Below, piece after piece: positions 21,001-24,000 of a stretch of 64,000 nucleotides of DNA. Position numbers: made by a program. Position 1 is the stretch's first letter; every line of letters begins with the position of its first letter. The DNA comes from Escherichia coli (GTDB taxonomy: Bacteria; Pseudomonadota; Gammaproteobacteria; Enterobacterales; Enterobacteriaceae), in assembly GCF_045037415.1 (NCBI RefSeq), contig NZ_CP173438.1, one strand, 5' to 3'.

Positions 21001-24000
21001 AATTACGAAAAGGGGGTAACAGCTACAGCGGTGAAGTGTGTTGGGGCTCATACTTTGGCGCAAACCCTAAACGCAAAAAATGCGCTTTTGCTCAGGGCCG
21101 TTGAGAAGGGGAAAATGGAATGCGTGGTACATCACAAATCGCCTGTGCTATCACGAAGTTAAAGAGTCGTGTTTCTCGTCAGGCGAAGGGGGGACGATGA
21201 AAGTGGTGAGCAATTCGTTGCGTAAGGCAGCCAGAAAAAACTAGTCTAATTTGCTGCCAGATTTAAGGGTACAGATCCAAAGCGGTGAATTAATAGAACT
21301 GAGCAAAATCGCTTTATCGTTCAGCTTCTGGGCGTTGAGGAACAGCCCGTCATGGCTGTCAGACATTTCACGCATAAAGTAGTCAAAAATCACATCTGGT
21401 GATTCATCTATCGATGAGGCGCTGGATTCCCACTGGCTGATGCGGTAATGGCGTTCCGTGGCGGAAACACGTTTACTGGTATAGGTAAATTTGACATAGC
21501 GTTGCAGGTACAGCCAGCCAGCGGCAGAGTCCGTGTAGCCTTCGAGCACCATCGAACCTTTACCCTGGCTGCCAAAGTTAAAGTGAATATTACCGTTAAC
21601 GTTCTCCTTTTCCATATTCTCAAAACGCATGATGCCTTTTGTTGAACAACTCATAATCCCTGTATTTTCAGCAGGGGACAACCGCCAGAAACTAAATCCG
21701 GAGGCGACAATAAACGCCAGGGCGGAAATAGCAAAGAAGGTACGCGGTGCGATTCTCATTACAGTTTCCAAGAGTAATAAAAGTAGTTATCGCAATAACT
21801 AAACGGGTTATTTTCATGCATAGCGCAGTGCGCGAGGAACACTCGCCCAAGGCCGTTGGTTTCCAGCCTGTCACCGTAGAAAAAAAGAAAACGCTCACTT
21901 GGTTTACAGGCGATATTTAGACGCTTACGGACTTCGTCATAATTTTTCTCATATGCCTTCACGCTTACTGAACGGCGCATTTCGTCGCTTGCCAGTAATT
22001 CGCACTGGCTATGAGAAAGTTGCGTCAAAGCGATGGGGCGCGCCTCGCTGATACCGAACAAATTGAAGGCTACCAACAGAATCGAAATGGTTAACAAACA
22101 GGCACCTGCAAAATACCAGTAAGCGTCGTGACGATGGGTGACTGGCGCTAATGTTGGTGGTGAAGACTCGGTATCCTCACTGGATGTTGGTACGTCAACA
22201 TCAGGGATTATGGATGGCTCTATAATTGCAGGTGGCGCAGGGGCTTCATCCAGTGGTTCGATGGATACATTCGGGTTTAGCTGCAGATAGCCGCGTGCAA
22301 CGGTAATGATAATATTATCAATACCATAGTGACGGAACGTCTTGCGCAGCATACTGAGATACTGATTCAGATTGCTGTTAGAAGAAGTTAATCCGTTGTT
22401 ATCCCAAACTTTTGTCAGTACCTCTTCGCGACTAACGATATCGGTATGATGCAAAAAAAAGTTGAGCAGCGCGCAGGACGTTATCGAGAGTTGGCAGTCT
22501 GGCTCAGTGCTTTGCGGTAGCGTAAGCGTGCCATCCGTAGCGTCATAAATGAAACGGGCATTGATGTTATAGCGCATCGCGACCTCAATCCATGGGACTT
22601 CACGCGGGAAGTGTCATCTTATTCAGTGAATCAACCAGTGCCTGACGATGTTCGGGGCTCATGGTGATCCCTTCCGTTAACTCAGACAACCAGATGCCAT
22701 CTGCGGTATAGCGCACCAGCGTTCCGGTTGGGCTATTATCCAGTTCATCGCCATTCGCTAAATGACCAAGCATCCAGTCTCGCCAGCATTTTCGCAGCAC
22801 CGGTTCATCGGGCATTGCCAGCGAAAGCACCATCAATTGACGGCTTTCTTGTGTGTCAGTCAGCGCAGAAAGATAGTTCACATATGCGCGAGTAAAACGG
22901 CCATAGCTTATATTGTCTTTTTGCATCAGGGCAGCGATGGCCTCTTCCATTATTGCCAACAACCGGGCAAACAAGGCGTAGATCAGCGCCTGCTTGTTCG
23001 GAAAGTGATGCAGTAATCCACCTTTACTCACGCCAGCTTCGCGGGCAACCGCATTCAGCGAGAGGGCAGCGATACCGTCACGACCAGCAATCATAGCTGC
23101 AGACTCCAGCAACTGCTGATACAGACGGATGGGATCTTTTTTACGATGTTGGGTTTCTGTATTCATAGGCAGAAGCATACCGACCAGACGGTATGTTTTT
23201 TTTTGATCGCTATCAAGGAGAAGCAGCTACCCATGAAGTGAGTATGGGTATTGCGTGTGAGGTCACAATTTGTCGTATAAATCCTACTGCTGCTGTTAAT
23301 TCTCCTGGTCTGCACAATGGTGGGAATCTGTTACCCTTTCGATGAACAGAAAATCCATAAAAAGATGATCAAATAACTTTTAATGACCTGAATGATGCTT
23401 TTTGAAATACAGAAGGCAAGCGAGAATGAACCGCCCCGGGGTTCCTAGAGAGTGTTTTATCTGTGAACTCAGGCTGCCAGCTCATCATTTCCGATAGAAG
23501 CATAATACGCTTTTTCTGCTTCTGCCGGAGGAGTATGCCTCAGCCTTCCCAGCAATCGTCGATTGTTATACCAGTCCACCCACGTGAGTGTGGCCAGTTC
23601 CACTTCTGCACGGTTTTTCCAGCTCTTACGGTGTATTACCTCCGCTTTGTAAAGACCATTGATGCTCTCCGCCATCGCGCTGCCATACGAGTCGCCTGTA
23701 CTCCCTGTTGATGCCAGCAGTTTTGCTTCTTTTAATCGCTCCGTATAGGCCAGTGACACATACTGAGAGCCTTTATCGCTGTGATGGATGGTGCCGGACG
23801 GACGACGGGCCCACAACGCCTGCTCCAGCGCATCCAGCACGAATGTCGTTTCCATGGACGATGATACCCGCCACCCCACGATGTATCCGGCAAACACATC
23901 AATGATGAACGCCACATAGACGAAGCCCTGCCATGTGCTGACGTAAGTAAAATCAGCCACCCACAGCTGGTCAGGACGTTCTGCCACGCACTGACGGTTT

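Follow-up and report, generated by a model that had tools for sequence, protein, structure and literature searches.

Gene content of the cutWXY locus

The stretch of DNA analyzed here (64,000 nucleotides of Escherichia coli, NCBI RefSeq assembly GCF_045037415.1, contig NZ_CP173438.1; hereafter "the window") contains, between positions 21241 and 23178, three minus-strand open reading frames (ORFs), positioned as in an initial annotation of this DNA, which are the cutW-cutX-cutY regulatory operon of a type II (GRM2) choline-utilization (cut) locus. The operon is headed by cutW (22600..23178; 192 amino acids, WP_000926369.1), which codes for a TetR/AcrR-family regulator, followed by cutX (21759..22577; 272 amino acids, WP_001270145.1) for a ToxR-like bitopic membrane transcription activator and cutY (21241..21759; 172 amino acids, WP_001217008.1) for a FidL-like periplasmic lipocalin-like protein with a single transmembrane (TM) helix. 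The respective RefSeq product names are TetR/AcrR, winged helix-turn-helix (wHTH), and FidL-like protein. A spacer of 519 nucleotides (nt) separates cutY from cmcA (20443..20721, minus strand; RefSeq BMC-domain protein WP_000502008.1), the first bacterial microcompartment (BMC) shell gene of the main cut operon and presumably the first gene under regulation.

Exactly these three accessions head the 16-gene cut locus published for E. coli 536 (PMC10710832), and the DNA of the 2.7-kb region is 100% identical to that of strain 536. CutW, CutX, and CutY of that locus (Herring et al., 2018) are identical proteins with the same role as regulators of the choline microcompartment operon. The gene names cutW, cutX, and cutY occur in two further articles (PMC12058022, PMC12977544), the first of which places a small CutW-CutX-CutY operon upstream of the grm2 promoter and describes the induction of the cut genes as anaerobic (PMC12058022). 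According to the literature, the regulators of the cut cluster are important for the generation of trimethylamine (TMA), CutX and CutY are activators with choline, and the addition of choline is by itself sufficient to induce the transcription of cut genes in E. coli, Klebsiella, and Proteus. The suggestion in the initial annotation that these regulators are placed to control the cut operon agrees with these reports, and the question of a functional characterization, which it had left undecided, is answered by them in the affirmative at the genetic level. Since the genes, their names, and their genetic role have been published, the finding as such is already known. Reportedly, cutX is a positive regulator needed for induction by choline, and cutX and cutY, but not cutW, are said to be among the genes needed for choline degradation. 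The additions made here are modest and consist of the structural placement of the proteins in the ToxRS/VtrAC class, the recognition of CutXY as a conserved core, and a conserved promoter architecture; the ToxR-like nature of CutX may already have been noted by Herring et al. (2018). In the searchable open-access literature no paper pairs "FidL" with "choline", and a search of open-access articles for ToxR, choline, and cutC returned nothing relevant.

CutX is a ToxR-like membrane-bound activator

CutX has the predicted topology of a ToxR-like protein, with an N-terminal wHTH domain, a single TM helix, and a C-terminal periplasmic domain, much as the initial annotation had described it. The cytoplasmic OmpR/PhoB-type winged helix (residues 29-96; 22290..22493, minus strand), for which that annotation had named a profile search as the check, was found as a match to Trans_reg_C (PF00486; E = 8.1e-7, model positions 5-74 of 77). 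Across 37 aligned orthologs, residues 58-82 are near-invariant, residues 103-150 form a hypervariable linker rich in Pro, Glu, and Ser that precedes the TM helix, and the C-terminal domain of approximately 95 amino acids is conserved. The TM helix (approximately residues 152-176; 22050..22124, minus strand) coincides with the one strongly hydrophobic segment seen in hydropathy analysis (approximately residues 152-177; peak of 2.27 in a Kyte-Doolittle window of 19 residues). The periplasmic domain (residues 177-272; 21762..22049, minus strand) contains four cysteines, of which C192, C251, and C262 were scored as invariant in the alignment and C224 is kept in more than 90% of the orthologs. In a structural model of the fused periplasmic domains of CutX and CutY (see below), the CutX part adopts a beta-beta-alpha-alpha-beta-beta-beta topology, with values of the predicted local distance difference test (pLDDT) mostly between 78 and 89 (range 54-89), and C251 and C262 sit on its last two beta strands. 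Both C192 and C224 are replaced in three Serratia loci (L057, L058, and L067), where C251 and C262 are unchanged. Because C192 and C224 were lost together in these three species, they are suggested to pair with each other, and the pattern of replacement suggests that C192-C224 is a dispensable and possibly regulatory disulfide.

When a CutX profile was searched against the sequences in the PDB, the DNA-binding domain of ToxR was the best match (E = 1.9e-6), followed by CadC at E = 1.6e-3, which bears out the ToxR-like architecture proposed initially. The initial annotation had also equated the architecture of CutX with that of CadC, which is indeed encoded 25 kb away in the same window (cadC, 47007-48545). 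This comparison is valid from the wHTH domain through the TM helix, where the two proteins share 30% identity (BLASTP, E = 2e-10) and where both possess an N-terminal wHTH domain, a Pro-rich linker, and a single TM helix. It fails beyond the TM helix, where no alignment is obtained and where CadC has approximately 330 residues, with no similarity to the approximately 95 amino acids of the CutX periplasmic domain. Assignment of CutX to CadC itself was rejected, as the NCBIfam model NF007540 scores 27.3 bits against a cutoff of 400, covers residues 37-182 only, and leaves an unrelated periplasmic domain. Thus, with ToxR as the best match, an alignment that ends at the TM helix, and a score far below the CadC cutoff, CutX is ToxR-like and not a CadC. 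The partner of CadC is the permease LysP and not a lipocalin protein.

CutY is a FidL-family protein with the fold of ToxS and VtrC

The overlap of the third gene with cutX had been recognized in the initial annotation, whereas the length of 176 amino acids given there stems from a mechanical ORF that starts at TTG 21771. Translation from ATG 21759, a start supported by RefSeq and by the alignment of orthologs, yields 172 amino acids, and this ATG overlaps the cutX stop codon as TAATG (21757-21761). CutY has a TM helix at its N-terminus (residues 5-27), followed by a beta-rich domain, and it matches the entire FidL_like model (Pfam PF15941; E = 3.6e-41, positions 1-87 of 87). Membership of the ToxS family by sequence was rejected, because a Pfam-A scan of CutY lists FidL_like only, up to an E-value of 10, and a CutY profile has no match at E <= 10 among the PDB sequences, although ToxS chains are in the PDB. 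The fold gives a different picture. The AlphaFold2 model of CutY (42 orthologs; pLDDT 84.7, predicted template modeling score [pTM] 0.72) comprises the TM helix, an eight-stranded barrel, and one helix, and its best structural matches are ToxS and VtrC. Foldseek, too, retrieved VtrC and two ToxS structures (8u2f, and 8alo_B of the ToxR-ToxS heterodimer), at a probability of at least 0.96. The modeled protein thus has the lipocalin-like co-sensor fold of ToxS and VtrC, and the initial guess of a "ToxS-like" arrangement is right with respect to the fold but not with respect to the sequence family.

Two cysteines of CutY, C38 and C163, are invariant and located on the first and last barrel strands. 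With 87% identity to the Kluyvera ortholog, CutY is better conserved than CutX (74%), and the mean column identity within the CutY clade is 69% from Escherichia to Photobacterium. Other FidL-like proteins share only 24-27% identity with the clade and lack its invariant motifs (EGY-DS-AGWLYLQRYV and FDYFMREMSDSHDGL). The CutY-specific invariant residues include F46, E47, Y75, W82, Y84, Y88, W110, Y127, F128, E131, and D134. Such high conservation is unusual for a fast-evolving superfamily and would fit a fixed ligand. A phmmer search with the single CutY sequence against 1.84 billion representatives retrieved 28 matches only; the family is small and fast-diverging. Two orthologs deviate near the end of the gene: in Providencia rettgeri PROV023 (L041) there is an internal stop near the 3' end of cutY, and in Serratia rubidaea (L067) the C-terminus is apparently frameshifted and the conserved SPLF-C motif lost. 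Both may be pseudogenes or sequencing errors.

CutX and CutY form the invariant core of the regulatory locus

Synteny was compared across 65 loci, namely the window and 64 species-representative loci from Escherichia, Kluyvera, Klebsiella, Raoultella, Proteus, Providencia, Serratia, Erwinia/Pantoea, Aeromonas, and Photobacterium. In every locus (65/65) cutX lies directly upstream of cutY, and the stop and start codons overlap or are no more than a few nt apart. Downstream of cutY, the orthologous loci carry BMC, aldehyde dehydrogenase, and CutC genes; of the 55 loci with sufficient downstream sequence, 53 contain BMC shell genes there, and cutC was found in 52 of 53. A cutW gene is present upstream in 47 of the 65 loci and absent from the other 18, which are otherwise intact and include most Photobacterium. 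Since cutX and cutY co-occur in all loci and cutW in 47, the pair is the invariant regulatory core and the TetR regulator is accessory.

Some loci show variations on this arrangement. In a Photobacterium locus that lacks cutW (L003), an ORF of 162 amino acids without a Pfam match (6330-6818) is found upstream of cutX, and further upstream are an AraC-family regulator and an MFS transporter. In Pantoea coffeiphila (L052, 7001-12016) and Erwinia sp. JUb26 (L053, 7001-11934), cutX-cutY is directly followed by cutF and cutC, with no match to a BMC shell protein between cutY and cutF/cutC. These two loci may represent a shell-less (non-compartmentalized) variant of the type II cut cluster with the same regulators.

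The uneven distribution of cutW bears on a scenario in which CutW, like BetI, is a cytoplasmic choline sensor that derepresses cutWXY, and CutX/CutY act as a signal-independent activator or answer another envelope cue. CutW is the first protein of the operon and, as the initial annotation had stated for positions 22600-23178, a TetR regulator, which is complete with TetR_N (PF00440; E = 8e-13) and TetR_C_28 (PF17937; E = 3.5e-21) domains. BetI models give weak N-terminal matches (4.1e-10), and a TetR regulator was named as the predicted regulator of type II clusters by Martinez-del Campo et al. (2015). Orthology to BetI was nevertheless rejected, because TIGR03384 scores 39.7 bits, far below its cutoff of 201.3, and aligns only with the N-terminal DNA-binding domain (residues 21-96). 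The closest solved relatives of CutW are generic multidrug-type TetR proteins, and the 18 loci without cutW would lack the sensor altogether. We therefore regard CutW as an unlikely choline sensor.

Relationship to known co-component systems

FidL-type proteins, known from the pairs MarT/FidL, GrvA/FidL, and YqeI/YqeJ, are lipocalin-like and belong to the VtrA/VtrC-ToxR/ToxS "co-component" superfamily (Kinch et al., 2022, PMC9214523), an article in which choline, cut genes, and microcompartments are not mentioned. In these proteins, a conserved disulfide links the first barrel strand to the last, and in the partner regulator another one joins the two final strands of the periplasmic domain; the ligand site in VtrC and ToxS is the barrel (PMC9214523). 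The positions of the cysteines in CutY (C38, C163) and CutX (C251, C262) match this description, with both disulfides being predicted, and the gene order is that of a co-component pair, with the TAATG overlap in the window and adjacency throughout the compared loci. ToxR/ToxS of Vibrio, VtrA/VtrC of V. parahaemolyticus, and CutX/CutY all combine a membrane-tethered wHTH activator with a periplasmic lipocalin-like barrel carried by a single TM helix, and in the two bile sensors the partner gene is adjacent and overlapping as in cutX/cutY. By published description, MarT/FidL (Salmonella pathogenicity island 3), GrvA/FidL, and YqeI/YqeJ (E. coli) share with CutX/CutY the Pfam family, the cysteines in the N- and C-terminal strands, the gene order, and the overlap. 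They differ in their targets, which are adhesins or type III secretion systems, and no ligand is known for them. More distant FidL-like genes (24-27% identity) also directly follow Trans_reg_C genes at unrelated loci, in one case beside a fimbrial operon, and the two-gene module is thus a portable signaling cassette.

Whether the two periplasmic domains interact was addressed with an AlphaFold2 model in which they were fused by a GGGGSx6 linker (33 paired sequences). The model has a pTM of 0.75, both domains have pLDDT values of approximately 80-90, and the 30-residue linker is disordered; this is no more than suggestive of a CutX/CutY heterodimer. Translational coupling and the co-occurrence of both genes in every locus are a further, indirect hint in this direction.

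Given the fold of ToxS, CutY might alternatively be a stabilizer that shields CutX against periplasmic proteolysis or assists in its folding, as has been described for ToxS and ToxR, and the signal would be sensed by the periplasmic domain of CutX or indirectly. Translational coupling would favor the matched production of both proteins that such a role entails, and the periplasmic domain of CutX with its four cysteines is itself strongly conserved. On the other hand, CutY is more conserved than CutX, and the invariant aromatic and acidic motifs specific to the CutY clade look like the constraint on a ligand site. With the barrel serving as the ligand site in VtrC and ToxS (PMC9214523), a purely stabilizing function of CutY is considered rather unlikely.

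A conserved promoter architecture upstream of cmcA

The spacer between cutY and cmcA contains a predicted CutX-dependent promoter of the main cut operon (20806..20915, minus strand), whose layout is conserved in the orthologous spacers. Its -10 element TATAGT (20806-20811, minus strand) is part of a conserved TATAGTG (20811-20805) approximately 90 nt before the cmcA start codon, and the cmcA transcript is predicted to begin a few nt downstream of TATAGT. The box GGATTTAAATTCC (20830-20842, minus strand; also ATTTAAATTCC and GGATTTAAATTYC; conserved form ATTTAAATTYC) is located 19 nt upstream of the -10 element, and TAAAT repeats occur on the same strand at 20898-20902, 20876-20880, 20856-20860, and 20833-20837, spaced by 22, 20, and 23 nt. 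With TATAGTG (in one locus TATATTG) as the anchor, 55 of the 58 orthologous intergenic regions show this layout, in genera from Escherichia to Photobacterium. The 10-mer of the box was found in 13-14 of 23 genus-level representatives, whereas shuffled spacers averaged 0.6 and never exceeded 3. A local direct repeat of E. coli (AAATTCCACA/AAATTCCATG) had also been considered but was discarded in favor of the conserved TAAAT phasing, as it is not conserved in other genera.

A simple promoter scan detected no sigma-70 consensus promoter on the minus strand between 20600 and 23500, a result that is consistent with an activator-dependent promoter and uninformative when taken alone. A conserved -10 element that lacks a -35 element and is preceded by phased AT-rich direct repeats is the layout expected for an activator of the OmpR/ToxR type, and the TAAAT repeats are the putative CutX binding site.

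A model for choline-dependent activation of the cut operon

Taken together, these features are best explained by the following mechanism, which we consider reasonably probable as a whole. CutX would be a ToxR-type activator in the inner membrane, with a wHTH domain that is tethered by a disordered Pro-rich linker to a single TM helix and, in the periplasm, a small alpha/beta domain that contains disulfides. CutY, its translationally coupled partner, would expose a FidL-family lipocalin-like barrel with the ToxS/VtrC fold to the periplasm from a single TM helix. The periplasmic domains of both proteins would heterodimerize like those of VtrA/VtrC and ToxR/ToxS, and this module in the periplasm would be where choline, the known inducer, is perceived, with the CutY barrel as the most likely site. 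CutX would then bind the phased TAAAT repeats, which would stand in for a -35 element upstream of TATAGTG, and the 13-gene main cut operon would be switched on from approximately 90 nt before cmcA. In this mechanism, CutW may act as an accessory modulator rather than as the core switch. That CutY, alone or together with the periplasmic domain of CutX, is the actual periplasmic choline receptor is a more tentative proposal, for which we see slightly less than an even chance.

Several points weigh against this model. The known ligands of the ToxS/VtrC fold are bile salts, which are large and amphipathic, whereas choline is small and cationic. The periplasmic domain of CutX was not matched to VtrA or ToxR, as the barrel dominated both structure searches. 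Most loci also encode a TetR regulator, and this protein, from the family of the choline sensor BetI, could be the one that transmits the choline signal. Finally, a search of the cut promoter region in 16 genera-level representatives revealed no conserved box for FNR, CRP, or ArcA, and the reported anaerobic dependence is thus not explained by FNR or ArcA.

In another scenario, choline is not what CutX and CutY sense; they would respond instead to the redox state of the periplasm or to anaerobiosis via their cysteines, to pH, or to TMA, and specificity for choline would come from elsewhere. Conserved periplasmic cysteine pairs are present in both proteins, and CadC and ToxR are modulated by periplasmic disulfides. 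The dispensability of C192 and C224 in Serratia is as expected for a regulatory rather than a structural disulfide, and the induction is described as anaerobic, yet the main promoter has no conserved FNR or ArcA box. Against this scenario are the reports that choline addition alone suffices for induction in E. coli, Klebsiella, and Proteus, and the loci without cutW encode no other dedicated choline sensor. We judge it quite improbable that choline is not the signal perceived by the pair. Within the model of periplasmic choline sensing by CutX/CutY, the C192-C224 disulfide of CutX might gate its activity in response to periplasmic redox conditions, which would explain anaerobic-only induction without an FNR site, but this is less likely.

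Distribution and genomic surroundings of the locus

In a megablast search with window positions 20700-23400 as query, the region was found at an identity of at least 99% in 321 of 5,426 complete E. coli genomes; in addition to these 321 chromosomal copies, 170 records were reported at 60-80% identity, and 149 places were on plasmids. The window is not colinear with E. coli 536 along its full length. Here, the cut island lies approximately 25 kb from cadCBA (47007-52472; order cadC, cadB, cadA), whereas in strain 536 it is located near nanC and fim. The arrangement of cut near cadCBA is common to 121 complete genomes. ARAGORN detected no tRNA genes in the whole window.

An IS3-family element (23469-24682; orfA/orfB with a programmed frameshift) is situated approximately 290 nt upstream of cutW, likewise in E. 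coli 536, and may have truncated or altered the native promoter region of cutWXY. A hairpin with a 12-bp stem (23171-23200) overlaps the start codon of cutW (ATG at 23178). It resembles a terminator on the plus strand only, where it is followed by a T-run; if formed on the minus strand, it could mask the start codon of cutW. Positions 25042-27778 have a low GC content (36-40%) and encode a MalY/PatB-family protein and an NhaC-type antiporter of 499 amino acids, which is intact in the window whereas nhaC of E. coli 536 is interrupted by an IS100 insertion.

Implications for FidL-type signaling and TMA formation

If CutY is the choline receptor, it would be the first co-component sensor of the FidL family, with the ToxS/VtrC fold, for which a ligand has been identified. 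This ligand would be a small cationic nutrient instead of a bile salt, and the pathway would lead to a metabolic organelle instead of virulence genes. As a member of the co-component superfamily with a known, cheap, and soluble inducer, CutXY would also be a convenient model for signal recognition by FidL-type proteins and its transmission across the membrane. The conversion of choline to TMA by gut bacteria has been linked to cardiometabolic disease, and the cut switch of the Enterobacteriaceae is a possible point of intervention. The model predicts that the receptor is periplasmic, and hence would be accessible to drugs that block the production of TMA.

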